A DNA stretch of 64,000 bases from IMG/VR virus record IMGVR_UViG_3300027741_000029, positions 52,400 through 116,399 of that record; one strand, 5' to 3'. The position numbers were made by a program, and so were the translations under genes. The DNA is from a virus. The notes beneath the pieces are model-generated. The model was not told where the DNA came from. It saw nothing but the letters and a program-made list of their open reading frames with translations, and did no database searches. Below, in pieces: positions 3,646 through 39,053 of this stretch. Each line of letters starts with the position of its first letter. Position 1 is the first letter of the stretch.

Positions 3646-3663
3646 TTCAACATACAGTATAAT
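3635..3663 (+). promoter_or_regulatory. consensus sigma70 promoter TTGACA-N17-TATAAT
   Basis: TTGACA 3635-3640, 17-nt spacer, TATAAT 3658-3663; AAGGA RBS, then ATG at 3687. Confidence 0.85.
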
Positions 3664-17886: not shown

Positions 17887-18762
17887 ATGCACGTATTAGT
17901 TACAGGCGGCTTTGGTTTTATTGGGCATCATGTTGTAAAACGTTTAAAGGATGGTGGTCATCAGGTTACTATCATTGATGATTTGCGTTTTATCAACACT
18001 GAACTTTATATGGCACGTGGGCGATATATGGATTTTGCATATGATGATTGGATCAATGCAGACTGTACGAGCACTATTATTCAGGATGTAGACGTGATTG
18101 TTCACCTTGCTTGCCACCCCAATCAAGCATCCTTTGCCAGAGATGGCGTAGCAGCATGGAAGAACGCTATCCAAAGCACCTTACATATGCTGACTGCCTA
18201 CCCTAATGCAAAGATGGTGTATATTTCTAGCAGCATGGTTTATAGTGATTGGAGCGGTGTAATTGGTGAAGATGCGCCACTAAAACCTATCAATGATTAT
18301 GGCAAGGCTAAACAAGAATGTGAGCAATTAGTCAGGGTTATTGCTAAACGTTGGGTAATTATTCGTCCAACTGCTGTATATGGTAATCGTGATGATGGCA
18401 ATCGTGTTATCTCTAAATGGGTTAAAGCTGCAGCAAATCAAGAACCAATTCATGTAGATGATCCACATGCTACACTTGATTTTACCTACGTAGAAGACAC
18501 TGCACAGGCAATTGCCAATGCTGCAATGTTTGATACCAATAATTTAATTGCCAATGTAAGTTATGGTCAAGCAAGAACTCTGCAAGACGCAATTGATATT
18601 ATCAAAGGTTGGACCAACACACAGAGTGAAATCGTGTATGGTGATGGTATACCATTTAATATGCCAAGGCGTGGTGCTATGGATATTCGCCGTGCTGTGC
18701 AGTATCTTGGATACACACCAAAGGTTAGTCTAGAAGACGGTATACAGAAACTTATTAAATGA
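17887..18762 (+). CDS. NAD-dependent sugar-nucleotide epimerase/dehydratase (extended SDR)
   Basis: VLVTGGFGFIG, VHLA, YISSSMVY, YxxxK (YGKAK), IRPTAVYG, DFTYVED. Confidence 0.92.
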   Translation: MHVLVTGGFGFIGHHVVKRLKDGGHQVTIIDDLRFINTELYMARGRYMDFAYDDWINADCTSTIIQDVDVIVHLACHPNQASFARDGVAAWKNAIQSTLHMLTAYPNAKMVYISSSMVYSDWSGVIGEDAPLKPINDYGKAKQECEQLVRVIAKRWVIIRPTAVYGNRDDGNRVISKWVKAAANQEPIHVDDPHATLDFTYVEDTAQAIANAAMFDTNNLIANVSYGQARTLQDAIDIIKGWTNTQSEIVYGDGIPFNMPRRGAMDIRRAVQYLGYTPKVSLEDGIQKLIK

Positions 18763-19826
18763 ATATTCCATTTACAGATTTACAATCACAATATCAGGAA
18801 GCCAAGAGTAGCATTGATGCAGCGATTGCGCACACGATTGCTACCAACAGCTTTATCACTGGTCCTGATGTAATCAAGTTTGAAACTACCCTAGCTGAAT
18901 ATCTTGGTGTGCCAGCCGTTGCTAGCACAGGTAGTTGCACAACCGCCCTACAAGTGGCTCTTAAAGCATGTGATATAGGCATCGGTGACGAAGTTATAAC
19001 CACCAGCCATACATTTGTAAGTACCGTAGAGGCTATTGTTAATATTGGTGCCATACCTGTTATGATCGATATTGATGAATTTTATCAATTATCGCCTTAC
19101 GAGTTAAAGAAACATATTACTCCAAAAACAAAAGCCATACTTGCAATGGATGCGTATGGACAAAGCTGCGATATTCATGCTCTTCGCTATTATGCAGACG
19201 AGTATGGATTAAAACTTATCAATGATAGTGCACACAGTTTTGGTAGTGCTATTATGAATATTGCTGATCTTAACTGCTTCTCGTTTAATCCTATCAAGAA
19301 CTTTGGAGCAATGGGCGATGCTGGTGCGGTTGTGGGCAAACCTGAACTAATAGAACGTGCCAGAATGTTCCGTGATCACGGACGCAATACCAAGTTTGTG
19401 TTTGAAGAAATTGGATACAATGCTAGAATTGATAACTTACAAGCCAACATTCTTCTTGCTAAACTTCCATACTTGAAAGAATGGAATGAAGGTCGCAAAC
19501 GTGTTGCCGCAAGATATGATGTTGAATTAAACCATGTTGTGAAGACACCAAAGAAATCTGGATTAAGTGATCATGTTTATTATGTATATGTCATTGAAGT
19601 TGAAAACCGTGATGACTTTGCAGCATACTTAAAAGAATGCGGTATAGCAACCAATATCCATTATCCTATACCGTGTCATATGCAACCAGCATTTAGCAAG
19701 TATAACGCATCTCTGCCCAACTGTGAAAGTGCAAGCAAGCGTATCCTAAGTTTGCCATGCTATCATACGCTAACAGAAGCACAACAAGATTATATTATCG
19801 ACAAAATTTGGGAGTGGCAAGCATGA
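18759..19826 (+). CDS. DegT/DnrJ/EryC1/StrS-family PLP aminotransferase
   Basis: SCTTALQVAL, GDEVIT..HTFVST, INDSAHS, SFNPIKNFGAMGDAG (PLP Lys), GYNARIDNLQA, IHYPIPCH, ILSLPCY. Confidence 0.95.
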   Translation: MNIPFTDLQSQYQEAKSSIDAAIAHTIATNSFITGPDVIKFETTLAEYLGVPAVASTGSCTTALQVALKACDIGIGDEVITTSHTFVSTVEAIVNIGAIPVMIDIDEFYQLSPYELKKHITPKTKAILAMDAYGQSCDIHALRYYADEYGLKLINDSAHSFGSAIMNIADLNCFSFNPIKNFGAMGDAGAVVGKPELIERARMFRDHGRNTKFVFEEIGYNARIDNLQANILLAKLPYLKEWNEGRKRVAARYDVELNHVVKTPKKSGLSDHVYYVYVIEVENRDDFAAYLKECGIATNIHYPIPCHMQPAFSKYNASLPNCESASKRILSLPCYHTLTEAQQDYIIDKIWEWQA

Positions 19827-20698
19827 AGATTTGGTTAGTAGGTTCGGGTTATTGGGGAAGTAAGATTGCAACCAAGTTGGAAAAACTACAAATAGATTAC
19901 TCTATCATTGATATTAAAAATGGTCAAACGATAAATGACATTGACACTCTTGATCCTGTTATGTTGGCAACACCGCTATGGGATCACTATGAACAAGCAA
20001 AGTATCTTATTGATCGTGGACATGATGTTTATATTGAAAAACCAGCCGCTGAAAACTATGACCAAATAGCAGAACTTGTTAAACTGACAAAAGATAATAT
20101 TGTAATGGTTGGACACATTTATATGTATAATCCAATCCTACATAAACTCAAAGACCTTATTGATAGCGGTAGACTTGGCGAGGTTCAATTTGTTAATAGC
20201 GTTCGCACTAATCTTGGCATTTACCAAACTAAGACAACTCCGCTGCTAAGTTTAGCACCACATGATTTTACTATTGTAAGTTATCTGTTAGGCGATTTGC
20301 ATGTTCGTAGTGCACAAGGATTTAAGTACAGTCCTAACAGTCCATATCCTGACCGTGTGCTAGTTAATGGAACAAACTGGCATATTGATGTTAGTTGGCT
20401 GCATCCTGAACGCAAACGTGAGGTCACTGTTATCGGTGATAAGGCACAAGCAATATGGAATGATGACACAAGAACACTGCGTATATATGAGAACAATATT
20501 GTAGGTGCCAAACTCCATTTAAATGATCCAGATGAGTATTGGGATTTTAATAATTTACCAGACCCACTAGAAAATGAATTAGCACATTTTATTAATTGTG
20601 TTGAAACTCGTGCTACGCCAGATAGTGATTTAAAATATGCTAGAAAAATTGCAGATTATATTGATATTGCACACTTTTTATTGGACATCACCATATAA
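19823..20698 (+). CDS. Gfo/Idh/MocA-family oxidoreductase
   Basis: True start ATG 19823 (MKIWLVGSGYWG, ATGA overlap); ATP..DH, YIEKP, VMVGHIYMYNP, APHD. Confidence 0.9.
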   Translation: MKIWLVGSGYWGSKIATKLEKLQIDYSIIDIKNGQTINDIDTLDPVMLATPLWDHYEQAKYLIDRGHDVYIEKPAAENYDQIAELVKLTKDNIVMVGHIYMYNPILHKLKDLIDSGRLGEVQFVNSVRTNLGIYQTKTTPLLSLAPHDFTIVSYLLGDLHVRSAQGFKYSPNSPYPDRVLVNGTNWHIDVSWLHPERKREVTVIGDKAQAIWNDDTRTLRIYENNIVGAKLHLNDPDEYWDFNNLPDPLENELAHFINCVETRATPDSDLKYARKIADYIDIAHFLLDITI

Positions 20699-22231
20699 TT
20701 GAGTAAAGTGATTGCGCAACCATTCCCAACGAAATGTGTTGCGACGAATCTCTGGCGTATCCATGTTATCTTCATAGAAACGTACACCATCATTAGCACC
20801 ACGTAATGCCCATTCAGCATAATTACCATTAGCAATCGTGTGCCAAATATGTAATCTATATTGTGTTTCAACGTTTGGCATTGTATCTGTAAATTCACGA
20901 AGTTTGTGTGCTTCACGAAACGCTGTTCTCCAAGTATGATAAGGAGAAGCATTGAAAGAACCATAGCAAGAAACAATAGGCACAACTTCGTGATCAAAAC
21001 TCAAGGTATAATCAGTGCCAAACTCGCCAAATGGTGGAGCATTTAGCACCATATCCCGATTATATAATACGATTCCCATGTGACCATAACGCAAACCATT
21101 AACAGTGTTCTCACTATAAAATATATAGTGTTTGGGTTTTTGCCAATAGTCAGCACCAATGTCAAAATTAAATGTTGGATGAATTTCAGTCTTGGCAAAT
21201 ACAGCATAGAAGTACGGCGTATCAGATTTGCCTGCTGCTGCTTTAAGAGCATTTTCCATTCCGCTAACACCATGAACTCGTTTAGCACGTGGAAATTTTT
21301 CTACTAGTTTATACCAGTTGGCATCTGCTTCTGGTTCATCATAGGATATAAAAATAATATCATTGAGTGCATCAAACCCATATTGCGGATAACGTAGCAG
21401 ATGTGGGTATTCATATAGTTCATCTTTTACAATGCAATCTCGTGGCACAAGCGTGGTGCTATTGTTTTTATTGATGCTAATTACTGGTCTTTTATCCCAT
21501 AAGCAAACATCTGGATAATCAACAAATCCAGTATGCGAGTAAACAGTGTATATGGCATTTAATCTGTTAGTTAGATTAAGTTCTCTTGCCAAACTATCTT
21601 GTGTAATTTTAATATTTGGCCAACGTTTGCGTTTTATTGGCACATGATCAAAATTATAATTTTGTTCGCCTCTCTTATAAGCATCTGCATTTATTAAAAA
21701 GGTATCGCCCTTCTCACAGGTTCCACTTGGCCAACAATGGATATAGTTCATATCATGATTGCTAGGCAACCAACTAAAATCAAATCCATCATAATCACAG
21801 CAATCTGCTATAATCCATAACCAAGGTTTTGTGCATTTATTAACAGCAGAATCAATCGCTGCTTGCATGGTGGTTATTAAACGAACTTGAAAATCTACCG
21901 AATGTGTATTATCAAAACTATTAGTGTTTAACAAACATGTATCATAATATTTGTTATCACTTGCAGACAATATTTCATCGTGATGTACGGTTCCGTTATC
22001 ATTATCTACTGGTATCAACCATGTTGAATAATGTTGCGCATTGTTATGGCTTGGCCAAGCATGTTTATATTGTAACTGATGGCGGTTAGGCATCCAACGA
22101 AAATTAAACTTGCTATAATCTACATCACGATTAGCAAGCCATACATATTCTGTTTTGCTACATTGTTTTGCTTTCGCAATTAAAATTTCAATATCACCAT
22201 CACTATAATCATACCAAACTATATCAAACAT
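20678..22231 (-). CDS. multi-domain glycosyltransferase-like protein (GT-A-like C-terminal domain, repeated N-terminal modules)
   Basis: C-terminal IFISYDEPEADANW...KRVHGVSG...KAAA...W RTAFRE is paralogous to 33499-34437, but the DxD is replaced by VFAK. Two N-terminal repeats W(L)...D.DY..F.F.W.P......Y.H.WPS. Confidence 0.55.
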   Translation of the reverse strand: MFDIVWYDYSDGDIEILIAKAKQCSKTEYVWLANRDVDYSKFNFRWMPNRHQLQYKHAWPSHNNAQHYSTWLIPVDNDNGTVHHDEILSASDNKYYDTCLLNTNSFDNTHSVDFQVRLITTMQAAIDSAVNKCTKPWLWIIADCCDYDGFDFSWLPSNHDMNYIHCWPSGTCEKGDTFLINADAYKRGEQNYNFDHVPIKRKRWPNIKITQDSLARELNLTNRLNAIYTVYSHTGFVDYPDVCLWDKRPVISINKNNSTTLVPRDCIVKDELYEYPHLLRYPQYGFDALNDIIFISYDEPEADANWYKLVEKFPRAKRVHGVSGMENALKAAAGKSDTPYFYAVFAKTEIHPTFNFDIGADYWQKPKHYIFYSENTVNGLRYGHMGIVLYNRDMVLNAPPFGEFGTDYTLSFDHEVVPIVSCYGSFNASPYHTWRTAFREAHKLREFTDTMPNVETQYRLHIWHTIANGNYAEWALRGANDGVRFYEDNMDTPEIRRNTFRWEWLRNHFTQLYGDVQ

Positions 22232-23336
22232 GGCTATTATAACCAGGCATCAAATAATCAATTTGACGTTGTTCATGGTCTGCATCAGCCCAACTATAAT
22301 CATATATTGCCTTGATGCCATCCACTTCTATAGAATAGATATCAAGTTTATCACCCATAACATCCCAAATTTTGAAAATATCATGTGTTCCAAAACTGCG
22401 TTCTAAATCAATATGTCCAAGTTCAAGATAACCTAGACTTAGATTAGTATCTTGTGGATCATAACCTTCACGAACTAACCATTCATTAAATTTAACCACT
22501 TCTTCTCGTAGCCAAGGACTTAAATTCATCGTAACATCACGACCCCACTCAATATCAAACTCACCGCTATAATATTGTAAATGTGTGATAGCATCACAGG
22601 TTGCTTGGTCTAATACGGGAGCGCCTTCATCACGAAATACTTCCATAAGTGTTTTGCCAATCTGTGTCCAATGCATATAAACATGTGCAAACCTGCGATC
22701 ATGTCCATTTACAGTAAATCCTTCACGATGCTCTGCAGTTAGATTATAACGAGTAGCATTTAAAAAAGTAGTAATTTGAGATGGACGAATCCATTCAGGT
22801 TTAAATCTTTGCTTGCGTAAACTTAAACAAAGTGTTTCAATTTCATGACACAGATTGTTAACTTGCCTAATACTATATTTTACATTTGGAGGCGCAAGTT
22901 TATAGTACAAACTTAAATTTTCAACCGTGCCTTGTAAGTGTTCAAAATAATTATGGACTTCATTCATTACTTCGTGATTTGGTCCACCGCTACTAGGATC
23001 ATCTGTTAATGGTAGCATTACAGTTGCGGGTGTGTAGAAAGTTTTAATGTTTATACTATCTAATCCAGCCGATTGCCATACACCAATTTCGTTAAAGGTG
23101 TAAATTCTAAGTGTATGCTTGCGCAATTCTTTGCATAGATAATTAAGGTCACGTGCACCGTTTGGCCAACCATGCCAACAATAATTTTTTTCAAGTTCAC
23201 TATTTTTTTGTAATTCTAATTTAAGAGCAGTAACCCAATCACGTGCTAATCCAGTATCATTTGGTTTAATATAATATGTTAATTTTTCTTCTTTGCGCAT
23301 GGGATTGCGCAGCGTTACAGCAATTTCACTCATCAA
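22224..23336 (-). CDS. hypothetical protein within the radical SAM cluster
   Basis: 370 aa, overlaps both neighbours; no motif recognised. Confidence 0.7.
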   Translation of the reverse strand: MMSEIAVTLRNPMRKEEKLTYYIKPNDTGLARDWVTALKLELQKNSELEKNYCWHGWPNGARDLNYLCKELRKHTLRIYTFNEIGVWQSAGLDSINIKTFYTPATVMLPLTDDPSSGGPNHEVMNEVHNYFEHLQGTVENLSLYYKLAPPNVKYSIRQVNNLCHEIETLCLSLRKQRFKPEWIRPSQITTFLNATRYNLTAEHREGFTVNGHDRRFAHVYMHWTQIGKTLMEVFRDEGAPVLDQATCDAITHLQYYSGEFDIEWGRDVTMNLSPWLREEVVKFNEWLVREGYDPQDTNLSLGYLELGHIDLERSFGTHDIFKIWDVMGDKLDIYSIEVDGIKAIYDYSWADADHEQRQIDYLMPGYNSHV

Positions 23337-24648
23337 TATTTTTCCACCAATTCAAAACATCTCCAGTTAAGATGTCTTCCATTTTTATTTTAACATCTTT
23401 TCTTAGAGATTCCAATTTTAAAAGATGTGCTTTGCCTTTTATTGCCTCTTGTTTATAATTGTTAGGAAACTGCTCAGCAAACGTAGGGCGAGTTTTAAGA
23501 TGTTCTAACACATCCCAAAGACTTTGTGTACGACGAGTGATGAGCGGTTTAATACGCTCCTGTATGCCCTCTAGGAGTGGTTCTAGGACCGTTCTAGGCA
23601 GCGCAAGAGGGCTGAGTAGTATATCAGGAGAGAAAGCAAATACAACCTTGCTCAACAGTTCTACATTCAGTTCATCGGATAAATTGATAATGCTCTCAAG
23701 GTCGTAAAGACCAGGTAAAGTAAGAGTAAAATCAATACGCATTTGTCTAGGGGTTTTTGAAGATTCAATCCCCCGTCGAAAGCTATTATACCACTCGCTA
23801 TAATTAAGGCCAGTCCTAACATATTCGCCAATTGCTCCTGTTCCATCTAAACTTGCGCATATTTCCCAATGTGGGAAATTTTCAAGAAGTTCCCATAGGG
23901 TTCCTTCTTTATCCTGACAATAACTCAAGTTTGTATTATATCTTACACGAACTTGGTCAGCATAGTCAAGTTCTATTATTCGCCGCATGAATGTCCAATG
24001 CTCATCGTAGAGTAATGGTTCGCCACCTACCCAATAGATTTCACGCACACTTTTATTTTCAATAGCTTCACGAAACTCTGGTATTACTACATCACGAGTA
24101 AAGTCACGAATAGCATGACGGTTTTTAGGTTGCATCCAGTGATTTTTTGGGTTAGACAAATCAACCATATTGTTTTTACGAACTTCAACTTCCCATGCAC
24201 TACTCAACATATCGCCACACATACGGCACTTGAAGTTACATACATTGCTATAGCGATAGTCCCAAGAGATAGGTTCTAAGGTTGTGTAGCCATTGCTATC
24301 TGTAGAAGAAACAATGTCCCCTCGTAAATGCCCAAAGAGGTTCCCAAAATAATCACGATATACAGAAGTGTTAAGCAACTTTTTATCACATACTTCGCAA
24401 GCAGAAGGAACCACACCAGCCAACCACTGTTTTCTAATTTCTCTAATATGTTCGCCATTCCACCAATCTTTTAATGTAAGTGGCGTAAACTTACCATCGC
24501 CACCAGCAGTATCGATATACTGTTGAAAATTTTGTGCAGGTTCACGAGAAGCACAGCATAGGCGTCTTTCACCGACAGGAGAAATAAATGTGTGCGTAAA
24601 TGGGGCTAGGCAGAAGTCCATAAATTGTTCTTTATTATTTTCTGTCAT
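23326..24648 (-). CDS. radical SAM protein with N-terminal Cys (twitch/SPASM-like) cluster
   Basis: CxxxCxxC = CNFKCRMC, GGEP, YNTN, SLDG; N-terminal FC.APF...LCC...CEVC. Confidence 0.93.
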   Translation of the reverse strand: MTENNKEQFMDFCLAPFTHTFISPVGERRLCCASREPAQNFQQYIDTAGGDGKFTPLTLKDWWNGEHIREIRKQWLAGVVPSACEVCDKKLLNTSVYRDYFGNLFGHLRGDIVSSTDSNGYTTLEPISWDYRYSNVCNFKCRMCGDMLSSAWEVEVRKNNMVDLSNPKNHWMQPKNRHAIRDFTRDVVIPEFREAIENKSVREIYWVGGEPLLYDEHWTFMRRIIELDYADQVRVRYNTNLSYCQDKEGTLWELLENFPHWEICASLDGTGAIGEYVRTGLNYSEWYNSFRRGIESSKTPRQMRIDFTLTLPGLYDLESIINLSDELNVELLSKVVFAFSPDILLSPLALPRTVLEPLLEGIQERIKPLITRRTQSLWDVLEHLKTRPTFAEQFPNNYKQEAIKGKAHLLKLESLRKDVKIKMEDILTGDVLNWWKNIDE

Positions 24649-24649
24649 T

Positions 24650-25329
24650 ATTTGCCTAAATAATAGTGTAGGCCACGGACTGCAATCCCGCCTACTCTAT
24701 GTTGAAAAGGAACACAGCAATGGTATTTAATACCCAACAATTCCCACAAAATTATTATGTCTATGCGTTTTTACGAGAAACTGATTTAACTCCATATTAT
24801 ATTGGCAAAGGCATTGGTAAAAGAGCATTTGCAACACACGGCAGAAGAGTTTCTGCCCCCAAAGACAAAAATAGAATAATAATATTATATCAAAATCTTA
24901 CAGAAAATCAAGCATATAATATAGAAATATTGTTGATTGATTTTTATGGACGAGAAGACCTTGGGACTGGTCGTTTATTAAACATGACAAGTGGGGGCGA
25001 TGGTAGAAGTAAAATTATTGTCAAGGAAGAAACAAGAGAAAAACTCAGCAATGCGAGCAAAGGAAAAAATAATCCAATGTTTGGAAAAACTGCATGGAAT
25101 AGAGGACAGACAAAAGAAACTAATCAAAAATTAGCAGAGATTGGAAATAAATTGAAGGGGCATAAAGCATGGAATGTTGGAGTTCCACACACCGATGAGG
25201 CAAAAAATAAAATGTCAATTTCCAGAAAGGGTAGAAAATTATCAGAAGAACACAAAAGAAAGTTAAGTGAAAGCAAACGAGGAGATAAAAATCCAAACTT
25301 TGGAAAAATACCGTGGAATAAAAAATAAA
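24650..25329 (+). mobile_element. free-standing homing endonuclease cassette flanked by a TCATT direct repeat
   Basis: TCATT at 24645-24649 and 25330-25334. Removing one copy plus the insert restores an ATGA stop/start overlap of the two flanking radical SAM genes. Confidence 0.7.
24720..25328 (+). CDS. GIY-YIG homing endonuclease with NUMOD3-type DNA-binding repeats
   Basis: YYVYAFLRE...PYYIGKG...R, E..LI..YGR, LLNMTSGGDG; NUMOD3-like SEEHKRKLSES and GKNNPMFGK/KNPNFGK. AAGGAA RBS before ATG 24720 (alternative ATG 24699). Confidence 0.9.
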   Translation: MVFNTQQFPQNYYVYAFLRETDLTPYYIGKGIGKRAFATHGRRVSAPKDKNRIIILYQNLTENQAYNIEILLIDFYGREDLGTGRLLNMTSGGDGRSKIIVKEETREKLSNASKGKNNPMFGKTAWNRGQTKETNQKLAEIGNKLKGHKAWNVGVPHTDEAKNKMSISRKGRKLSEEHKRKLSESKRGDKNPNFGKIPWNKK

Positions 25330-26493
25330 TCATTCATAACCTATCGCCGCTGCTACTTCTGGATGATGATCACTAAATTTTTGATTGCGTTGAATGTCAC
25401 TATTCTTTAATGCTTCTACAAGTTTAGTACAATCACTGCCTTCACCTTGCATCATAAACTGCAATAAATTAACAACTTCGTCATTATATGGACCGCTATA
25501 ATTTTTAAGTTTATTATTAATAAGTTCTTTTGCAGCAGCATTTAATCGTGAAATACTGAAATGCCAAGCATCATGTAGCACATTAAAATATACATAATCA
25601 AAACGTTGTTGGGCAATCCATTCACACATTTCATCAATATAATAGAAGTTTTGTACATTTGAAGTCATACATAATTGTAATTTAATATTTGTATTAGTAT
25701 CACGGAGATCATAAAGACGTTGGAGATTATCCATCGCCTTATCCCAATTAGAACCATAACGTTGATATTCAAAGCGTGGACCAATATCATCTACACTAAC
25801 TGCTATTTCAACTAATTTAAAATGAGGCCAAATTTCTAATCCACGTTTTGGAAATGTAGTTAAATTGGTATTATAATGTATTTCAATGTCTTTGGCATAT
25901 CCCATTTCAACTGCTATTTCCAATAGAGTAAAGTGCTCATCAATAAGAAATGGTTCACCGCCTGTAAACTCAAAATATTTTGAATTTGCTAGAAGTTCAG
26001 TTAAATCTGACCAAAAACGCTGAGCCTCACGAGGCCAACGACCTTTTTCAAGGTTTTCACGAGCAGTTGTATTGCCAGGATGAATATCAATTTCTTCTTG
26101 CGCCCATTTTGAACTGCTGAAACTGCCACATATACGACATTTTAAATTACAAATGTTACCAAGTTTTAAATCAAGAAATGCAAGACTGCCATCGCTACTA
26201 CTAGTAAATTTTTTGTCACCTATAATTTGCCGTAATCTAGAAATGCTATGCATACGTTTGCTTGTGCGTCCGCTATCTTCTTCTGCCCAACATCGATTAC
26301 AGTTAGCAGGTTTTTCACCATCTAAGAAACTTTGACGAAGCGCAACCATATAAGAACTATTAAATGCTTCGGTTAGCGTATTTGTTTTTAAATCAATATC
26401 TGGAATAGTTTCATAACTTAAACAACATACTTTGCATTTACCCATTGGGTCTGCTTCAATACTTACAAAAGGTAATACACAAAAGTTATCCAT
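25330..26493 (-). CDS. radical SAM protein with N-terminal Cys cluster
   Basis: CNLKCRIC, TGGEP, HYNTN, VSVDD; N-terminal FCVLPF...VCC...CNRCW. Confidence 0.93.
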   Translation of the reverse strand: MDNFCVLPFVSIEADPMGKCKVCCLSYETIPDIDLKTNTLTEAFNSSYMVALRQSFLDGEKPANCNRCWAEEDSGRTSKRMHSISRLRQIIGDKKFTSSSDGSLAFLDLKLGNICNLKCRICGSFSSSKWAQEEIDIHPGNTTARENLEKGRWPREAQRFWSDLTELLANSKYFEFTGGEPFLIDEHFTLLEIAVEMGYAKDIEIHYNTNLTTFPKRGLEIWPHFKLVEIAVSVDDIGPRFEYQRYGSNWDKAMDNLQRLYDLRDTNTNIKLQLCMTSNVQNFYYIDEMCEWIAQQRFDYVYFNVLHDAWHFSISRLNAAAKELINNKLKNYSGPYNDEVVNLLQFMMQGEGSDCTKLVEALKNSDIQRNQKFSDHHPEVAAAIGYE

Positions 26494-29126: not shown

Positions 29127-30160
29127 TTAGTTGAATATTCCTGTGTAACAATGTGTGATGCGCATTTATTTAAGCATTCAGAAATTGATCCAAATTTATT
29201 AAACATGTCAGTCCAACCATCCCAATTTAATACAGTTTCCATATTAAAAGTATTTAAATTTAACTCAGATCGTATGAACAAGTTATATGTATTCATATCA
29301 TAACGATTTCCCATCCAACAACAAGGAAAGAAAATTCCTTGACTATTAATATATAAACCCTTGTTGCCAATCCAACATAATGGTGTTAAATTTCCAATAC
29401 TACTACGATTTTCATAGTACATTAAATTTGCAGCAAGACTATGTGTAATATCAGGTGTTCTGTCAGTAAAGTTTATCACATCTCGTGTAAAACGACCATT
29501 TGTTATATATTGCTCTTCGGGTTGAAGTTCGTCTATGCCATTGGTATTATAATTATCATAGTTAATTCCAAATTTAGAACTACGAGTAAGTTGGAAACTA
29601 TCAAATCCTAATTGTTGTGCAATATTTTGCATATTTTCAATTTTATGTTGATTATATTTGAATACAATCGCTGCCCAACGAATCGTTACTTTAGTATTTT
29701 TTCTTAATTCAATAACACCATCAATAATGCTCTGCCAATTACTATTTTTTCTATATGTTGAATTACTTTCTTGGTTCCATCCATCCAAGCTAAAATGAAT
29801 TTCATCATATTCATTCAATAGCGTGGATAACTTACTCCACCAATCAATTGTTTTATAACTACCATTAGTTACTATCAATAAATTAATAGATGGCTTACAT
29901 TTTTTAATATATTCAATGATTTTTAAGAAATCTTTTGCGTATATCGGATCACCATCATCACCACAAAAACTCATTCGTGTGACATGAGTTTGTAAAAAAT
30001 GTGGAGTAAAATTTCTTTCAAAAAATTTCAAACTTAAACTAGTTTGTATAAGTGTATCTGGTAATTCTGTACGAGGACAACGAGGGCATTGCAGAGTGCA
30101 AATACTACTTGCCTCAAAATGCCAGTGCCACAATGGCCACCGATAAATATTTTTCACCAT
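29120..30160 (-). CDS. radical SAM protein with C-terminal twitch/SPASM-like Cys cluster
   Basis: CTLQCPRC, FCGDDGDP, VTNGS, FSLDG; C-terminal C...GIFFPCCW...CLNKC. Start set at MVKNIY (ATG 30160). Confidence 0.9.
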   Translation of the reverse strand: MVKNIYRWPLWHWHFEASSICTLQCPRCPRTELPDTLIQTSLSLKFFERNFTPHFLQTHVTRMSFCGDDGDPIYAKDFLKIIEYIKKCKPSINLLIVTNGSYKTIDWWSKLSTLLNEYDEIHFSLDGWNQESNSTYRKNSNWQSIIDGVIELRKNTKVTIRWAAIVFKYNQHKIENMQNIAQQLGFDSFQLTRSSKFGINYDNYNTNGIDELQPEEQYITNGRFTRDVINFTDRTPDITHSLAANLMYYENRSSIGNLTPLCWIGNKGLYINSQGIFFPCCWMGNRYDMNTYNLFIRSELNLNTFNMETVLNWDGWTDMFNKFGSISECLNKCASHIVTQEYSTKW

Positions 30161-31628
30161 GATAGATTTAATTCTCCTCAATGTACCTGCTGTTAGTTTG
30201 TCATATCCACTGGCAGGCACTGCAATCTTAAAAGCAGCCGTAGAAAAAAATGGCTATACAAGTAAGATTATTGATCTTAATTATAACCTAATGCATGACA
30301 TAAATCAAGATTATTCAGTTGCATTAGAAAGTTATTTTACACTTGGTCATTCATTAGACGAAGTGTTTAATTTAATCTATCAACAGTTTTTAGAAGAAAG
30401 TGTAAACACTATACTATCATTAAACCCAAGATTTATAGGAATAAGTGTTTTTACATTTGAATGTCAAAAATTTACGGTTGATATCTGCAATACATTACAT
30501 GATAAAAGCTATAGTGGAAAGATAGTTATAGGTGGTGCTGGATTGAGCACAACTGGAATAGCAACAAAAGTTAATGATTTTGGCAATAAAATGGTTAATA
30601 TTGGATTAGTAGATTATTATATAAGAGGCGAAGCCGATATTGCTATTGTTGAATTATTAAATGGTAATACTACATTTGCTGGTATAAACAACGATGATTT
30701 TAAACAAATTGACGATTTAAATGTTAATTATGTTCCTGATTATGTTGATATATTGGGCAATCAGTATGCCTGGCCATACGGTAAACCAGTTATTCCTATA
30801 ACTGGAAGCCGTGGATGCGTTAGAGAATGCACATTCTGTGATATTCATAAGTTTTGGCATAAATTTAGATTTCGTACTGGTGATAATATTGCTGCAGAAA
30901 TGATAAAACAATATCAGAAATATGGCATTAGAGATTTTTACTTTACTGACAGTTTAATCAATGGAAGCATGCGAGCATTCAGGAATCTATGTGAAAGTTT
31001 GATTAATTACTATGCAGAAAATAACTTACCAAACAAATATTTTAGTTGGGGTGGACAATTTATTATTCGTAGTTCACTGCAAATGTCCGCAGAAGATTAT
31101 AAACTAGCATCAAAAGCAGGACTAAACGGTGTTGCCATAGGTATTGAAAGTGGCAGCGATTCGGTTCGTGAACATATGAAAAAGAAATTTAGCAACGTTG
31201 ATATTGATTTTGCAATTGAAAATCTTAGTAAAAACAATATAAACTGTTATTTTTTAATCATAGTTGGATATCCTACCGAAACAGAACAAGATTTTCAAGA
31301 TACAATTAATATGTTTGAAAGATATCAACCATATAGTGTTGATGGAACTATATTTGGTGTAAACTTAGGCGGTACTTTAAGCATAGACGAGGGTACTGAA
31401 ATTTATGAAAAACAAGTTGAACTTGGAATGTCAGAATTAGATAATAATTTATTTGGTTTAAATTGGGTTTCAAAGTATAATGAAACACTTACCATTGAAG
31501 AAAGAATACGCCGTCGCATTGTATTACAAGAAAAACTTATGGATATGAACTATCAAGTATGGAATGGCGATCATCAATTGAAGAGATTAATAAAAAGTTA
31601 TGAACGAATTGCAAACAGAACATATTGA
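30159..31628 (+). CDS. cobalamin (B12)-binding class B radical SAM enzyme, probable methyltransferase
   Basis: N-terminal B12-binding pattern (YPLAGTAILKA...IDLN, IGISVF, IVIGG, IRGEAD), SRGCVRECTFC, FTDSLING, IGIESGS, IVGYPTETEQDF. Confidence 0.92.
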   Translation: MIDLILLNVPAVSLSYPLAGTAILKAAVEKNGYTSKIIDLNYNLMHDINQDYSVALESYFTLGHSLDEVFNLIYQQFLEESVNTILSLNPRFIGISVFTFECQKFTVDICNTLHDKSYSGKIVIGGAGLSTTGIATKVNDFGNKMVNIGLVDYYIRGEADIAIVELLNGNTTFAGINNDDFKQIDDLNVNYVPDYVDILGNQYAWPYGKPVIPITGSRGCVRECTFCDIHKFWHKFRFRTGDNIAAEMIKQYQKYGIRDFYFTDSLINGSMRAFRNLCESLINYYAENNLPNKYFSWGGQFIIRSSLQMSAEDYKLASKAGLNGVAIGIESGSDSVREHMKKKFSNVDIDFAIENLSKNNINCYFLIIVGYPTETEQDFQDTINMFERYQPYSVDGTIFGVNLGGTLSIDEGTEIYEKQVELGMSELDNNLFGLNWVSKYNETLTIEERIRRRIVLQEKLMDMNYQVWNGDHQLKRLIKSYERIANRTY

Positions 31629-32100
31629 GTTAGTAATTAATTATAGAAGTCAGGCAAATAATGGCTGGCCAATTATTAGTTTCTATGTAAATGATATCTT
31701 AATTGATACGATACATGCAGATAATGATAAAGTTAATTTATCATTTAACGTACCCATTGGAGATTGGAAATTTAGTGCAATTCATTGGGGCAAGAACCCG
31801 CACAATGAGTCAAGCCCAGATAAATTTTTTGAAATTACGGATATAACTATCAATAAAGTAAACATTAGTAGAATAATTCACCGTGGTATACAATATCCAC
31901 AATTGCCCCCGTGGGAAAAAGCACAGGTATCGTGGGTGGGAAATTTATATATGGGACATAATGGCAAGATTGAATGGAATTTTACTAGTCCAATATATGA
32001 TTATTTGCGCCAAGAATTTAATACAGTGGTAAAACCAATTGTTGGACAAGAAACAACAAGAGAAGTATTAGAGCAGACAAAGAAATTCTTTAATCTTTAA
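31600..32100 (+). CDS. hypothetical beta-rich protein
   Basis: Overlaps the B12 radical SAM gene; its TAA shares TTAA with the convergent gene. Confidence 0.65.
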   Translation: MNELQTEHIELVINYRSQANNGWPIISFYVNDILIDTIHADNDKVNLSFNVPIGDWKFSAIHWGKNPHNESSPDKFFEITDITINKVNISRIIHRGIQYPQLPPWEKAQVSWVGNLYMGHNGKIEWNFTSPIYDYLRQEFNTVVKPIVGQETTREVLEQTKKFFNL

Positions 32101-33605
32101 CCCTTATCCGCCCAATACTTACAATTATTATACCAATCTACCATTTCTGGAAATGTCGCAAGGAAATTTGTCTTACGGCGAGCATCATGTTCACTAAAGA
32201 AACGATAGAAATCTGCCGCTGCATTAGTATCTTCACGGTGATGTTCGTGCATCCAATCTACCACACGTTGAAGTTTAGCAATTTCATAATCCTTGAACCC
32301 ATTGAAGCGTGTAGCAACTGTTTCTGCTTGTGGTTTCATCCAATGGACAATATTTTGCAAGAACCAAGCATAACTTGGCGGTAGTATATCAATACACTGC
32401 CATTGAGGTTCACGAAGAATTGGAGTATCAAACCAAATGCGCTGATAGGTCTTGCTATACTTGGCACGAAGTTGTAGTATCCATTGCATCAATTCTTGAA
32501 GACTTGTGATGTTTAGCACGTTCATCGTAATGATAAATGTCACGCTATTACGACTTGGAACTTCTTCCAAGAAACGCTCAACATTTCGTTTCATAAGTTC
32601 AAATTCAAGACCATGGCGAGCATATTCAGCACGTTCTCCGTATCCGTCGATAGAGACAAACTGCATGAAATGCTCTAGCACATGGTTACCACACATATGT
32701 TTAACATAGGTTAGATACTTGTCAAACACATATTCATCTTGACTAAAGTTAGAGGTTACATTAAGATGTAAATCTTTCTTTGGGTTTTCTAATACGTAGT
32801 CAAATACACGATAAGTATTGCGATCCATAAGAGGCTCGCCGCCTGTCATACGGAAGTGTTTTAGGTTAGGGTAGAGTTCTGGCCACCATCTCCAGAACGC
32901 ATCAACATAAGGATTATCTTCCCGATTCGGTATAGGTTTACGATCACCCCGAAAGTAAGCAGGACTATTATGACTATTAGAGGTAGGATAAGCACCAAAA
33001 TCATTGATTTCCTTCATCCACGAACTACTAAACTGTGGACTGCAATATGAACAACTTAAATTACAAGCACTGTTAAAGTTTACTTCAACATAACTTGGAT
33101 TTGGATTCCACGTTAGTGGGTCTTGAACCAAAATCTCGCTAAACTTCTCAGCAGCCCAAGGTTCTCCACTGCGGTAATGTCGGTCAGATAAGTTTCCCGT
33201 GGCTTCAACTCGCCAGCAATATGAACATTCTTCTGGCTTTTCTCCACCAAGCATTCTTGCTCTCTGGGTCTTTTTATGAGCGGTGTTATGGAGCGCACTG
33301 GGGTTATCTTGTAACTCATTGGCATCAATCCTATGTAGTGGTGGGTGGTAACAACTGTTGGTATGACCTGTTGTTAGGTGTATACTGGTCTGCTGCCACT
33401 TTGCAAGGCAAAGAGCGGGTCCAAGTTTTGTTTGCATTTGTTCAGCAGAGAACATAAAGTCGCTGTGAAGATTGCCTTCATTATCAGCAACTGCCCGATC
33501 ACCACTGTTGTCTAGCCGCACTTCTGATGACACTATGGACATCCCTTTCTGGTAACATGATATCAATATTTTGATATGCTCGCTGATGCTTTTTATACCA
33601 AGCAC
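32097..33605 (-). CDS. radical SAM protein with N-terminal Cys/His cluster (true start probably at or after 33542)
   Basis: CNLSCSYC, MTGGEP, VTSN, VSIDG; N-terminal LCLAKW...SCYHP...CSYCW. Paralogue of 27780-29126. Confidence 0.92.
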   Translation of the reverse strand: MLGIKSISEHIKILISCYQKGMSIVSSEVRLDNSGDRAVADNEGNLHSDFMFSAEQMQTKLGPALCLAKWQQTSIHLTTGHTNSCYHPPLHRIDANELQDNPSALHNTAHKKTQRARMLGGEKPEECSYCWRVEATGNLSDRHYRSGEPWAAEKFSEILVQDPLTWNPNPSYVEVNFNSACNLSCSYCSPQFSSSWMKEINDFGAYPTSNSHNSPAYFRGDRKPIPNREDNPYVDAFWRWWPELYPNLKHFRMTGGEPLMDRNTYRVFDYVLENPKKDLHLNVTSNFSQDEYVFDKYLTYVKHMCGNHVLEHFMQFVSIDGYGERAEYARHGLEFELMKRNVERFLEEVPSRNSVTFIITMNVLNITSLQELMQWILQLRAKYSKTYQRIWFDTPILREPQWQCIDILPPSYAWFLQNIVHWMKPQAETVATRFNGFKDYEIAKLQRVVDWMHEHHREDTNAAADFYRFFSEHDARRKTNFLATFPEMVDWYNNCKYWADKG

Positions 33606-34437
33606 TTTGTTCAGGAGACATGCTTATTATATCAAGATTAAGACGTTTACGCAATATGTTTGCATACTGCTCACTTTGTTGTAAACCTTTATCTATTGTA
33701 AAGTTCCACAATATATCTAGTTTTTTGAAATCACGAACTTCACGATAATCCCAATCATCGTCAAACATAGTCATATAGGCACCTTGTCTGGCACCCATTA
33801 TTGCCCATTTGCCGAACTCAACATCGCTACCAACAGTACACCAAATAACAAGATTCGCACGATTCCCAATCCAAGTGGCATTTTCAAACTCCTCTGGCGT
33901 AGGTCTACGACCACGATCTAAACATAATTTAACTCCTTCACGGAATCCTGCTTGCCATGCTTGCTGTGGACTGCCATTTGGATCGGTTGTACTCCACACA
34001 TCATGCATAGCCCAATAACGATTATCAAAACAAAACTCAACAGCGGTATGATTACTGCCATCGGTTGCTTCATGTGTGCGCATATTGTTTACAAAATCTT
34101 TTGTCCAACTACTAATGCCACCATTTCCATAACAAAGACCATTAATAATATTCTTTGCTCTCCAACGAAATACACAATCCCTGTTACGATCATCAATGCG
34201 TAATTGTTGATTAAAAAATTCTGGGTTTGGTAGATTGTCAGCATCAATAAGAATAAATCGTTCTGTGTCACTGGCAGCAGCCGCTGCCTTGTGTGCAGCA
34301 TCCGAACCTTCTATACCATCAACTCGTTTTGCCCATGGAGCAAATGAACGCACATATGACCAATTTGCATCAGCATTTGGTTCTTTGTAACTTAGAAAGA
34401 TACAATCTAATTCACTAATATCAATAATCTCAGACAC
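33499..34437 (-). CDS. glycosyltransferase-like protein (GT-A, DxD)
   Basis: CIFLSYKEPNADANW, KRVDGIEGSDAAHKAAA, FILIDADN (DxD), YGNGG, AWQAGFREG. GTG start at 34437 overlapping the upstream stop. Confidence 0.6.
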   Translation of the reverse strand: MSEIIDISELDCIFLSYKEPNADANWSYVRSFAPWAKRVDGIEGSDAAHKAAAAASDTERFILIDADNLPNPEFFNQQLRIDDRNRDCVFRWRAKNIINGLCYGNGGISSWTKDFVNNMRTHEATDGSNHTAVEFCFDNRYWAMHDVWSTTDPNGSPQQAWQAGFREGVKLCLDRGRRPTPEEFENATWIGNRANLVIWCTVGSDVEFGKWAIMGARQGAYMTMFDDDWDYREVRDFKKLDILWNFTIDKGLQQSEQYANILRKRLNLDIISMSPEQSAWYKKHQRAYQNIDIMLPERDVHSVIRSAARQQW

Positions 34438-34663
34438 TTTTCCATCCTTGTGCATTGGGATAATCAACATCTACAGGAAACTGATAATCATCATGCAGCG
34501 TATAAACTTCGCTTCCACCACGTTTATAAACAATCTGTGTGGGAAAATTATATGTTGGTGGCGGAGGAGGAACAAATTTAGGCATTTCTGGCAGAACTTG
34601 TTTTGCTAACTCACGTTCTACTTCATCCCACCAAGCCTTGATCTCTTCTTCTGTTAAACTCAT
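34430..34663 (-). CDS. small hypothetical protein with a poly-Pro stretch
   Basis: Likely start MSLTEEE (34663); contains PPPPP. Confidence 0.5.
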   Translation of the reverse strand: MSLTEEEIKAWWDEVERELAKQVLPEMPKFVPPPPPTYNFPTQIVYKRGGSEVYTLHDDYQFPVDVDYPNAQGWKSV

Positions 34664-35480
34664 GTGTATATCTATCCAATAATTCATCCGTTGCAAAGGT
34701 TTTTTCAACATAATGTAGCGGTCTTGACTGCTTATAATGACCAATAGTGGGAGTAAAATCGTTTTGAATGTCCCAGTTTAATTGTTCATGCCATGGTTGT
34801 GTGCTAAAACAATTCTGCAATTTTGATTTCATATGAACAAAACCAAATCCTGTATCCTGCGGTTTTACATCTAATATCTTTAGCGCAAGCGCATATACTT
34901 CATCTGTGCGTGGTTCATCATAGCGACAATTGACAAGATAGTTATCACGATAATAATCCCAATCATCTGTAATCATACGCATAGTATCATAAATTTCTTT
35001 ACATGCGGTATCATAGGTGAAATAAGTCCAAGCACTATAAATGTTTGGCATTAGATTTTCATCAAATTGTTGACGATATTTGCGATTGTCAATTGCGTGT
35101 CCATCATAGGTATAAACGCTTTGTGTAAAACTATATGTAAATTGTGCATATGTATTCCATAACCAACTTAAATTGGTTGTGAATAACATATCACATTCTG
35201 TTTTAATCGTGCTTTTGTAAGGACTATATGCAAATGCCTGACATTCATTTTGCATCTTGATCTTGCTGCTTTGTGCAAGGTCATGTTTTAGCACGATAAC
35301 TTTATCAAAAACTGCAAGATGCGCATCTGTTACTTGTTCATATGTTTCTTTATCTACAATAACGCTGAAATTATTATCTAGGCTTTGCGTAAGTTTGCAA
35401 CTTAAGGCTTGTAGATAAGCCATTCGTAAATAATCCACGTCTCCGCTGTTCTGTGCAATACAAAGATAACCGTTGCTCAT
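34623..35480 (-). CDS. glycosyltransferase-like protein (GT-A, GT8/mannosyltransferase-like)
   Basis: GYLCIAQN...YLRMAY, SPYKSTIKTECDMLF (ExD at the DxD position), YSAWTYF, RTDEVYALA, FVHMK, LHY. Confidence 0.6.
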   Translation of the reverse strand: MSNGYLCIAQNSGDVDYLRMAYLQALSCKLTQSLDNNFSVIVDKETYEQVTDAHLAVFDKVIVLKHDLAQSSKIKMQNECQAFAYSPYKSTIKTECDMLFTTNLSWLWNTYAQFTYSFTQSVYTYDGHAIDNRKYRQQFDENLMPNIYSAWTYFTYDTACKEIYDTMRMITDDWDYYRDNYLVNCRYDEPRTDEVYALALKILDVKPQDTGFGFVHMKSKLQNCFSTQPWHEQLNWDIQNDFTPTIGHYKQSRPLHYVEKTFATDELLDRYTHEFNRRRDQGLVG

Positions 35481-36238
35481 TGTAATTGTCCCTTATTCAT
35501 CAAATGCAAATCTAAATTTTGTAGTTTATTTGCGCATAGTTTTGTTGTTTCGTAATGGTAAACTAACTTATCGTTTTCAAAACTAATATACTTTGTAAAA
35601 TTATCGCAATTAACAAGCGGATACTTCACAAATCCATAATTTTTTGAACCATATCCGCCGATAATATGGCAAGCAATGGTAAAGATATAATCATTGCGTA
35701 CTGGAATACGCTTAAACCCATACAACTCGCTATAATATACATAATGTTTTTGAACATGCTTTGCCATTTCAAATATGTTCTTTGCTTCCTCACACTTGTT
35801 GAAGATAGCAACAGTTGCCCAATACATGTCTATTTGGGTGTTGCCAAGTTTATATCGCTCAACCGTGCCAGTTCGTACATTATACACATCACGAGTCATA
35901 ATAAAATCTGTGTTACTGTTTATATGAGCAAGCAGGTTAGGGGTGCAAATATAATAATCACTATCTATGAGTAGCGTTCTGTTATATGGACTAATATCAT
36001 ATAGATCGGTTCTTGAAAGATTATACCATGTAAAATCTTTGCGTAAATTTGCTGTTGGTTTTATGGCAACAATACGATTATGTGATCCAACATTGGCGGT
36101 TTCATCATCTGTTATAATTGTTACAGGTATGTTTAAGTGCTGCACAACACGGTCAGCCGCAGCCACCGCCATCTTTAGATGGTCATGTTTTTCATTATTA
36201 AATGCGGTAATTATGCATCCATTAGAGTTGACGAGCAT
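35477..36238 (-). CDS. glycosyltransferase-like protein (GT-A, paralogue of 34623-35480)
   Basis: GCIITAFN, YDISPYNRTLLIDSDYYI (DxD), YWATVAIF, RNDYIFTIA, LHLMNK. Start probably MLVNS (36238). Confidence 0.65.
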   Translation of the reverse strand: MLVNSNGCIITAFNNEKHDHLKMAVAAADRVVQHLNIPVTIITDDETANVGSHNRIVAIKPTANLRKDFTWYNLSRTDLYDISPYNRTLLIDSDYYICTPNLLAHINSNTDFIMTRDVYNVRTGTVERYKLGNTQIDMYWATVAIFNKCEEAKNIFEMAKHVQKHYVYYSELYGFKRIPVRNDYIFTIACHIIGGYGSKNYGFVKYPLVNCDNFTKYISFENDKLVYHYETTKLCANKLQNLDLHLMNKGQLQ

Positions 36239-36563
36239 TTCTAACTTTTGTAAACTCTTCGTATTCTGCTGCAAACTCGTTCATTACTTCATACCAACGG
36301 CGCTGACAAATATATAACAGTTCATGCGGAATAACTTTAACTGGAACATCATAGGCATCCATCATAAAAATTACACCATCCCAATCTTTCCAATTTGGGC
36401 CAAACCATGAATGTAAGAAAGCAATAAGTTCTTGGGTTACGATAAACATACCACCATTATAATTCACGGTCATTCGTGATTCAATGGCAGTATTGATATT
36501 TTGTTTTGCCAGTTCACGATCATATGCTACTCTGGCTGCATCACGCAATTCTTCTGTGTTCAT
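36222..36563 (-). CDS. hypothetical protein heading the glycosyltransferase/radical SAM cluster
   Basis: 113 aa; YNGGMFIVTQELIAF motif; directly after a consensus promoter. Confidence 0.7.
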   Translation of the reverse strand: MNTEELRDAARVAYDRELAKQNINTAIESRMTVNYNGGMFIVTQELIAFLHSWFGPNWKDWDGVIFMMDAYDVPVKVIPHELLYICQRRWYEVMNEFAAEYEEFTKVRNARQL

Positions 36564-36569
36564 ATTACG

Positions 36570-36598
36570 ATTATAATAGAAAAGATAGGAAATGTCAA
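36570..36598 (-). promoter_or_regulatory. consensus sigma70 promoter TTGACA-N17-TATAAT on the - strand, ATG 6 nt downstream
   Basis: Minus strand reads TTGACA TTTCCTATCTTTTCTAT TATAAT CGTAAT ATG (36598 to 36561). Confidence 0.88.
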
Positions 36599-36604
36599 AT
36601 AATA

Positions 36605-38825: not shown

Positions 38826-39053
38826 TTATTTATTAGAAATAACTGCGGTACTTGTATCCTTGTCTATATGCATGTAACCTTCGCATGCAATGTTCCAATC
38901 TTGACCATCAGTTTCATCCCAACAAGGCACATTTATCTGTACATGCTTTACAATAAATTCCTTGCCATTTTCAAAGATCCGCCACACGTGCTCTAACGAA
39001 CCACGCCCCTCACTTCCACGAGATTTATTAAAACGTATATGATACTTGTTCAT
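38826..39053 (-). CDS. small hypothetical protein
   Basis: ATGA overlap with the oxygenase gene. Confidence 0.6.
   Translation of the reverse strand: MNKYHIRFNKSRGSEGRGSLEHVWRIFENGKEFIVKHVQINVPCWDETDGQDWNIACEGYMHIDKDTSTAVISNK

Follow-up and report, generated by a model that had tools for sequence, protein, structure and literature searches.

What would a jumbo phage make with seven radical SAM (S-adenosylmethionine) enzymes placed among sugar enzymes? The locus that raises this question lies at 17887-36598 of a 64,000-nucleotide stretch of DNA (hereafter the window; IMG/VR record IMGVR_UViG_3300027741_000029, positions 52,400 to 116,399) from an uncultured T4-like phage, whose genes in the window include those for a T4-type DNA polymerase, a baseplate wedge protein, a 4839-aa structural protein and several fibers. 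A preliminary description of this DNA had listed at the locus the radical SAM enzymes, four glycosyltransferase (GT)-like proteins, an epimerase, a DegT aminotransferase and a Gfo/Idh/MocA dehydrogenase, and had proposed that they tailor a phage-made glycan. Indeed, all of these gene classes are present, and they adjoin tail-fiber genes. The best-supported conclusion of our analysis is that the locus harbors a real, widespread and uncharacterized module, which would join virus-encoded glycan synthesis with radical SAM tailoring of sugars. With regard to function, we put the chances at about even that the operon makes an unusual carbohydrate and tailors it by radical chemistry, using soluble cytoplasmic enzymes expressed from a host-type promoter of its own.

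Are these genes inherited as a unit? IMG/VR relatives of the phage form contigs of up to 338 kb, one of which (relative G001, IMGVR_UViG_3300032334_001259) carries terminal repeats and has a completeness rating of 100%; the lineage is thus one of jumbo phages. The cluster itself had no megablast match in a set of 50,697 records of cultured phages. To separate core genes from accessories, we compared 26 IMG/VR loci by gene maps and by a matrix of proteins against loci. In these loci, at protein identities of 25–95%, the order u113-u265-u285-u104-u323-rS5-rS4-rS3-rS2-rS1-u370-u517 is conserved (designations as in Table 1), which rules out chance and establishes a real, co-inherited phage enzyme system. 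This core comprises 11–12 genes. A fiber-like gene precedes u113, and the SPASM-like radical SAM gene, where present (about a third of the loci), sits between rS5 and rS4.

The other genes behave differently. The epimerase/dehydratase of the short-chain dehydrogenase/reductase (SDR) family, the DegT aminotransferase and the Gfo/Idh/MocA dehydrogenase were all confirmed by clear Pfam matches; the core block converges on the opposite-strand DegT and SDR genes and on thyA and folA. The Gfo/Idh/MocA gene, however, occurs in only three of the 26 loci (L001, L011 and L023). The B12-type radical SAM gene and its partner u166 occur in none of them and were found only in two phage contigs binned into metagenome-assembled genomes (MAGs), L027 and L031. 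In L027 (4453-6385), this cassette occupies the same slot between rS5 and rS4 and is co-oriented with the operon, whereas in the window it is inverted (30159-32100, plus strand); no match to the Gfo/Idh/MocA or DegT gene was found in L027. The amino-sugar genes, the SPASM radical SAM gene and the B12-type cassette are therefore independently distributed accessories, not core. Independent distribution of the genes, which had been named beforehand as a ground for rejecting the proposal, holds for these accessories and fails for the core. It also undercuts the analogy drawn with gentamicin synthesis, in which GenD2, GenS2 and GenD1 act in series on one sugar. The window does contain a dehydrogenase, a DegT-type aminotransferase and a B12-type radical SAM enzyme, but the analogy is unsupported because the three genes are not inherited together, and the pairing of Gfo/Idh/MocA and DegT enzymes is equally typical of ordinary UDP-sugar 3-amination.

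All seven radical SAM genes are real. The CxxxCxxC motif is intact in each. Five of the enzymes (rS1–rS5) are full-length members of NCBIfam family NF033640 (N-terminal twitch, N_Twi_rSAM), every one of them scoring past the curated threshold of 170 bits across the whole model (Table 1); their CxxxCxxC is retained in 77 of the 77 phage orthologs checked. In these five, the N-terminal cysteines C13, C31, C84 and C87 are invariant and are followed by the CxxxCxxC core (C137, C141 and C144); the Pfam SPASM match lies N-terminal to the Radical_SAM match. A FastTree phylogeny contained five supported orthogroups, every one holding all of the phage loci. The duplications are therefore ancient, and that no copy has been lost implies a distinct task for each of the five. 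For rS5, the open reading frame (ORF) as listed has GTG 33605 as its first codon and would share 106 nt with u323; alignment of the orthologs favors the ATG at 33542, which is likely the true start. Comparison of the rS3 profile with the PDB returned viperin (E 0.006, core) and BtrN (4m7s; E 0.011, twitch region only), both marginal, and the rS5 profile matched BtrN at E 0.6; the single rS3 protein found nothing in a PDB sequence search. Viperin and BtrN, marginal as they are as nearest solved relatives of rS3, both act on sugar-like small molecules. A literature search on the N-twitch family, and on the combination of jumbo phage, radical SAM enzyme and glycosyltransferase, found nothing specific. 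For the B12-type enzyme, the Radical_SAM match (66 bits) is above its cut-off, and that to the B12-binding domain PF02310 reached 21.7 bits against a cut-off of 32.1. Its best NCBIfam match, PhpK, scored 111 bits against a cut-off of 600, and the protein lies far under every equivalog cut-off.

The four GT-like proteins (u323, u517, u285 and u265) are also present. They have no Pfam, PHROG or NCBIfam match, and the support for them differs in strength. Absence of a GT-A fold had been named as another ground for rejection; at least one of them, u323, has this fold. Its AlphaFold2 model (predicted local distance difference test score, pLDDT, 86) matched 2p6w and GT2 enzymes with a Foldseek probability of 1.0. 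The top match was A64R of PBCV-1, an enzyme that glycosylates the capsid (2p6w; E 4e-4), with TM-scores of 0.29 (query-normalized) and 0.42 (target-normalized). In the VIA comparison, u323 had a Z of 9.9 to B4GALNT1 and other GT-A enzymes (residues 15-165; 140 aligned; root-mean-square deviation 3.3), which nucleotidyltransferases nearly equaled (Z 8.9). Both aspartates of the DxD motif, D76 and D78, are identical across 22 sequences. The structural matches of u323 include, among many others, the S-glycosyltransferases SunS and ThuS. The C-terminal half of u517 is 32% identical to u323; the number of its N-terminal W..P..H.WP repeats differs among orthologs, from two to more than three. The proteins u285 and u265 are paralogs (hhalign of family profiles, 99.5% probability), and the u265 profile had no PDB match. 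A relationship between u323 and u285 was considered and rejected, as hhalign found them unrelated.

How is the module expressed? A perfect sigma-70-type site precedes u113, and the u113 ATG lies 6–7 nt past the −10 box, so the mRNA would be leaderless or nearly so. Only 0.15 perfect sigma-70 sites would be expected in the window, which has three. Upstream of u113 orthologs, this promoter arrangement recurs in most of the related loci, sometimes after a terminator hairpin. Having its own promoter, the module is a separate transcription unit and not an extension of the late fiber operon, and this weakens the idea that it coats the virion. By its consensus the promoter is host-type, and it is probably early. 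The other two perfect sites lie at 36819-36846 (plus strand), antisense inside the fiber-like gene, and at 3635-3663 (plus strand). Shuffles predict 9.9 occurrences of the T4 late motif TATAAATA in the window, which has none; either a different late promoter serves this lineage or TATAAATA is avoided.

Membrane-like segments were found in none of the cluster proteins, and the cluster gave no match to an exporter, peptidase, flippase or polymerase family; nor did Pfam and NCBIfam reveal an RRE/PqqD domain in its proteins. A small-ORF screen of the cluster for a short conserved peptide gave alternative-frame artifacts only; between genes, the cluster leaves just two gaps, 24649-24698 and 36564-36604. 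The cluster had been described as lacking an obvious short precursor peptide, a peptidase and an exporter. No peptidase, exporter or hallmark of ribosomally synthesized and post-translationally modified peptides (RiPPs) was found here either, but two small conserved proteins, u113 and u104, do exist, and a small folded protein might be a substrate.

Bacterial relatives of the radical SAM enzymes provide a context for their substrate. A genome scan yielded 78 distinct loci that were kept. The best five (L027–L031) are phage contigs binned into MAGs, and three of these carry phage core genes. The remainder belong to a variety of bacteria, represented by MAGs and isolates, with Bacteroidota, Bdellovibrionota and Elusimicrobia making up many of them. 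Around 25 single-copy loci, the commonest neighbors are GT2 genes and PhyH dioxygenases, followed by radical SAM/SPASM genes, ABC transporters and GT4. Two three-copy loci in Bacteroidota contain DegT, SDR, carbamoyltransferase and PhyH genes, a UbiA-GT4-GDSL fusion and a sulfotransferase-like gene. In Bdellovibrionales, a radical SAM array is interleaved with two GT2 genes. In the Bacteriovoracaceae MAG UBA6144 (L034, 6040-18036), an array of eight N-twitch genes lies between obg and rplU, and each of the five phage orthogroups has a member of this array at its side.

Among cultured phages, only Vibrio K566/K567 and Ralstonia RsoM2USA match rS3 at E <= 1e-5. K566 has four N-twitch-like radical SAM enzymes and none of the transferases. 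In RsoM2USA (344 kb; MG752970), ORFs 348-354 form a mini-module that follows a fiber-like gene and keeps the same order: u113-like, u265-like, u285-like, an unrelated ORF, u323-like (46% identity), an rS5-type radical SAM gene (35%) and a second u323-like gene. This version differs from that in the window in having one radical SAM gene and no u370, and both of its u323-like proteins keep the DxD motif, which u517 of the window does not. These ORFs are all annotated as hypothetical and are not discussed in the paper describing the phage. Upstream of ORF354 there is a hairpin, but no consensus sigma-70 promoter.

Because the bacterial NF033640 genes sit among sugar genes, and because of the weak similarity to BtrN and viperin, a carbohydrate is the best reading of the substrate; this part of the preliminary description survives without its gentamicin analogy, and it was right to hold that sequence alone does not determine the substrate. 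We infer the sugar substrate and every chemical step in the following scheme. The accessory SDR, DegT and Gfo/Idh/MocA enzymes would supply keto- or amino-sugar nucleotides. Each of the five N-twitch enzymes would then change a sugar carbon in one radical step (oxidation, epimerization, dehydration or C–C/C-methyl chemistry), the simplest case being action on the nucleotide-sugar or on a short oligosaccharide, and three or four GT-A-type proteins would pass the products to a cytoplasmic acceptor. If this scheme holds, virion fiber proteins would be the most probable acceptor, though at less than even chance; the fiber-adjacent position, conserved across distant phages, favors them. A host envelope glycan would come next, favored by the early-type promoter and the Bacteroidota contexts, and then a free small molecule, favored by the radical-SAM-only arrays of predatory bacteria and the hints from viperin and BtrN. 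DNA is the least likely of those named, as improbable as all remaining acceptors together. A more ambitious proposal, which we advance only tentatively, is that the five-orthogroup set is a new multi-step radical pathway that predatory Bdellovibrionota have in common with jumbo phages. Its product would be a sugar or nucleotide-sugar of a new, heavily C-modified class, which in phages would be installed by a phage-only GT-A family on a macromolecule of host recognition or exclusion.

Several observations weigh against a sugar-tailoring operon. To our knowledge, NF033640 is a sequence model only, with no characterized member or known reaction; membership in it therefore gives no function, and the case for sugar tailoring rests on association. 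The L034 array has no GT-like gene within 10 kb on either side, so the radical SAM set can apparently work without the phage transferases. Assignment to GT8 is weak, the u285 family profile matching glycogenin-1 (3v90) at E 0.002 over residues 5-111, and in u517 the DxD motif is replaced by an invariant A346-K347 in nine of nine orthologs, such that its GT-A-like domain may be metal-independent or non-catalytic. Three core proteins, u370, u113 and u104, are without an assignable role. Finally, an early-type promoter fits the late decoration of virion proteins poorly.

Might the radical SAM enzymes instead act on protein? They would then modify side chains or the backbone of a phage protein (a fiber, u104 or u113), for example by epimerization or cross-linking, in the manner of RiPP maturation, and the GT-like proteins would glycosylate the same protein. 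Many SPASM and twitch radical SAM enzymes are peptide maturases, and the cluster enzymes have weak NCBIfam cross-matches to maturases of sactipeptides and ranthipeptides. In addition, the two small conserved proteins are always in the operon, the position beside fiber genes is kept even in the distant RsoM2USA, and the resemblance of u323 extends to SunS and ThuS. We nevertheless regard a protein substrate as unlikely: searches for an RRE/PqqD domain and for peptidase or exporter families detected none, u113 exceeds the enzymes in conservation and resembles a folded protein and not a precursor with a variable core, the bacterial arrays have no homologs of u104 or u113, and the bacterial neighbors are sugar enzymes. 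The envelope of the host offers another target. An early operon could alter a cytoplasmic-face precursor of lipopolysaccharide, capsule or peptidoglycan, thereby masking the receptor against superinfection or keeping new virions from being trapped. The consensus host-type promoter suggests the early expression that this would need, the Bacteroidota radical SAM genes lie near genes typical of the synthesis of lipid-linked glycans (UbiA-prenyltransferase/GT4, carbamoyltransferase and DegT/SDR), and such a role has been proposed for pelagimyophage GT8 genes in a host-recognition cluster with radical SAM cassettes (PMC7029224). It is hard to reconcile with the lack, in the cluster, of any membrane-associated enzyme, flippase, polymerase, initiating phosphoglycosyltransferase or hydrophobic segment, and five oxygen-sensitive enzymes are a heavy investment for exclusion; we rate it as distinctly unlikely.

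A free small molecule, be it an aminoglycoside-like or a modified-nucleotide metabolite acting on the host or on competitors, would suit a cluster whose enzymes are all soluble and to which amino-sugar genes are attached. It would also suit the marginal similarity to viperin and BtrN, both of them small-molecule enzymes, and the Bacteriovoracaceae arrays, where the radical SAM genes stand almost alone. Yet every phage locus conserves three or four transferase-like proteins, the cluster showed neither an exporter nor a self-resistance gene, and the gentamicin-type triad is not co-distributed, making such a product decidedly improbable in our view. Highly improbable is hypermodification of DNA, in which the bases of phage DNA would receive sugars, to be tailored afterwards by radical chemistry as a defense against restriction. 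Radical SAM enzymes occur in some phage DNA base modification pathways, the promoter is early-type, like those of the T4 glucosyltransferases, and the cluster converges on thyA and folA. However, the adjoining ThyA passes the equivalog cut-offs for thymidylate synthase and is the sole ThyA-family gene in the complete 338-kb relative G001. As this single gene encodes a true thymidylate synthase and no hydroxymethylase was found, there is no hydroxymethyl handle for T4-style glycosylation of hydroxymethylcytosine or hydroxymethyluracil; a glycan of that type on DNA, one of the options in the preliminary description, is thus unlikely. Furthermore, the GT-like proteins are of the GT-A type, unlike the alpha- and beta-glucosyltransferases of T4, which have the GT-B fold.

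Does the module resemble any known system? The five N-twitch enzymes share with the rest of NF033640 an N-terminal four-cysteine domain and the CxxxCxxC motif; what distinguishes the window is the joint inheritance of five old orthogroups. The twitch radical SAM enzymes BtrN and HygY, whose substrates are aminocyclitols or sugars, likewise combine one auxiliary [4Fe-4S]-type cysteine domain with a radical SAM core in a carbohydrate gene context. Their twitch domain is C-terminal, however, whereas those of the window are N-terminal, and the window is without aminoglycoside pathway genes. PBCV-1 A64R and the mycobacteriophage glycosyltransferases are comparable as soluble, virus-encoded GT-A enzymes that adjoin structural genes; no radical SAM enzymes occur in those systems, and the module in the window, for which virion glycosylation is a candidate role, has an early-type promoter. 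Also comparable are the host-recognition clusters of pelagimyophages, which hold GT8 genes and radical SAM cassettes and for which O-antigen modification has been proposed (PMC7029224). There, too, a T4-like phage brings together a giant structural protein, fiber genes, GT8 genes (GT8-like ones in the window) and radical SAM cassettes; that paper lists the genes and does not resolve the radical SAM family, the gene order or the promoter (PMC7029224). Auxiliary metabolic genes labeled “ahbD” on the criterion of PF13186 plus PF04055 abound in virome surveys; a Baltic study lists 261 of uncertain function (PMC9301287), which may be of the present kind. Phage radical SAM enzymes like these would fit that definition, so the label is probably wrong, and such surveys probably misread genes of this kind as “ahbD”.

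The families of the module are abundant in environmental metagenomes: searches saturated at more than 7400 clusters for the radical SAM family (rS3) and at least 8000 for u323, on contigs of up to ~350 kb. Despite this abundance, neither family has any annotation (none of the u323 clusters is annotated) or known chemistry, and a set of five radical SAM enzymes, each conserved and none redundant, implies new enzymology. Because a cultured phage, RsoM2USA, carries a minimal version, the question is open to ordinary phage genetics and mass spectrometry.

Table 1. Features of the radical SAM/glycosyltransferase-like locus and its flank, in window coordinates.
Feature	Coordinates	Strand	Remarks
NAD-dependent SDR epimerase/dehydratase	17887..18762	+	PF01370, E 2e-32
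DegT/DnrJ/EryC1 sugar aminotransferase	18759..19826	+	PF01041, E 2e-97; PseC-like and WecE-like matches under cut-off
Gfo/Idh/MocA oxidoreductase	19757..20698	+	accessory, convergent strand; best NCBIfam match UDP-GlcNAc (UDP-N-acetylglucosamine) 3-dehydrogenase, 94 bits against cut-off of 450
u517	20678..22231	-	last operon gene; N-terminal W..P..H.WP repeats, C-terminal u323-like GT-A domain
u370	22224..23336	-	phage-specific; cyclophilin-like beta-barrel with helical insertion; invariant His/Glu motifs
rS1, N-twitch radical SAM	23326..24648	-	CC subtype; NF033640, 264 bits; own orthogroup in tree
NUMOD3 homing endonuclease	24699..25328	+	inserted antisense between rS1 and rS2; PF07460, E 3e-25
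rS2, N-twitch radical SAM	25330..26493	-	CC subtype; NF033640, 341 bits; own orthogroup in tree
rS3, N-twitch radical SAM	26486..27802	-	CC subtype; NF033640, 395 bits; >7400 metagenome relatives
rS4, N-twitch radical SAM	27780..29126	-	SCxH subtype; NF033640, 300 bits; orthogroup in tree
Radical SAM with C-terminal twitch/SPASM-like motif	29120..30220	-	accessory; CTLQCPRC and CX13GX4C
Class-B-like (B12-type) radical SAM	30159..31628	+	accessory cassette, inverted here; CVRECTFC; Radical_SAM, E 5e-18
u166	31600..32100	+	partner gene of B12-type cassette, which it accompanies in L027 and L031; no family match
rS5, N-twitch radical SAM	32097..33542	-	SCxH subtype; NF033640, 338 bits; own orthogroup in tree
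u323	33499..34470	-	GT-A-fold glycosyltransferase-like, C-terminal helical domain; invariant D76-x-D78
u104	34430..34663	-	~77 aa; N-terminal helix, Pro-rich linker, conserved C-terminal YTLxxDxQFxV...GW; no family match
u285	34623..35480	-	GT8-like (GT-A) protein; ExD replaces DxD
u265	35477..36274	-	GT8-like (GT-A) protein; invariant DxD (D104, D106)
u113	36222..36563	-	first operon gene; small, highly conserved; no family match
Sigma-70-type consensus promoter	36570..36598	-	TTGACA-N17-TATAAT, perfect; in 41-bp gap between fiber-like gene and u113
Fiber-like structural protein	36605..37528	-	directly upstream of promoter; context, outside operon; ortholog precedes u113 in most loci
Tail-fiber gene	37584-38804		next gene after fiber-like gene; matches tail-fiber PHROGs

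The remaining core proteins were characterized to a limited extent. Orthologs of u113 occur in 22 loci, at up to 96% identity, and RsoM2USA_354 is a distant homolog. The position of u104 is constant, between u285 and u323; a three-chain complex prediction of u285, u323 and u104 scored 0.00. The AlphaFold2 model of u370 (pLDDT 89) had a VIA Z of ~10 to cyclophilin-fold proteins, just above the tool’s stated background level. Foldseek found no PDB match for this model, the u370 profile returned nothing in a PDB sequence search and the ESM Atlas gave only sub-threshold matches to unrelated families; in BFVD, only uncharacterized phage proteins matched, one of them from Atu_ph07. A relationship of u370 to u323 was likewise rejected, hhalign finding the two unrelated.

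The NUMOD3 endonuclease is a mobile insert outside the pathway. Relatives of it occupy another operon site, between u285 and u104, in L002 and L009, and the element appears to hop within the operon. Beyond the operon, a 2-oxoglutarate-Fe(II) oxygenase (PF13759) and a DUF6065 protein are encoded amid the tail-fiber genes (39050-40380, minus strand) and may constitute a separate protein-modifying pair. The 4839-aa ORF (45322-59841, minus strand) has an FG-GAP repeat and is placed between the baseplate wedge gene and the fiber genes; it parallels the structural protein ORF361 (>288 kDa) of RsoM2USA.

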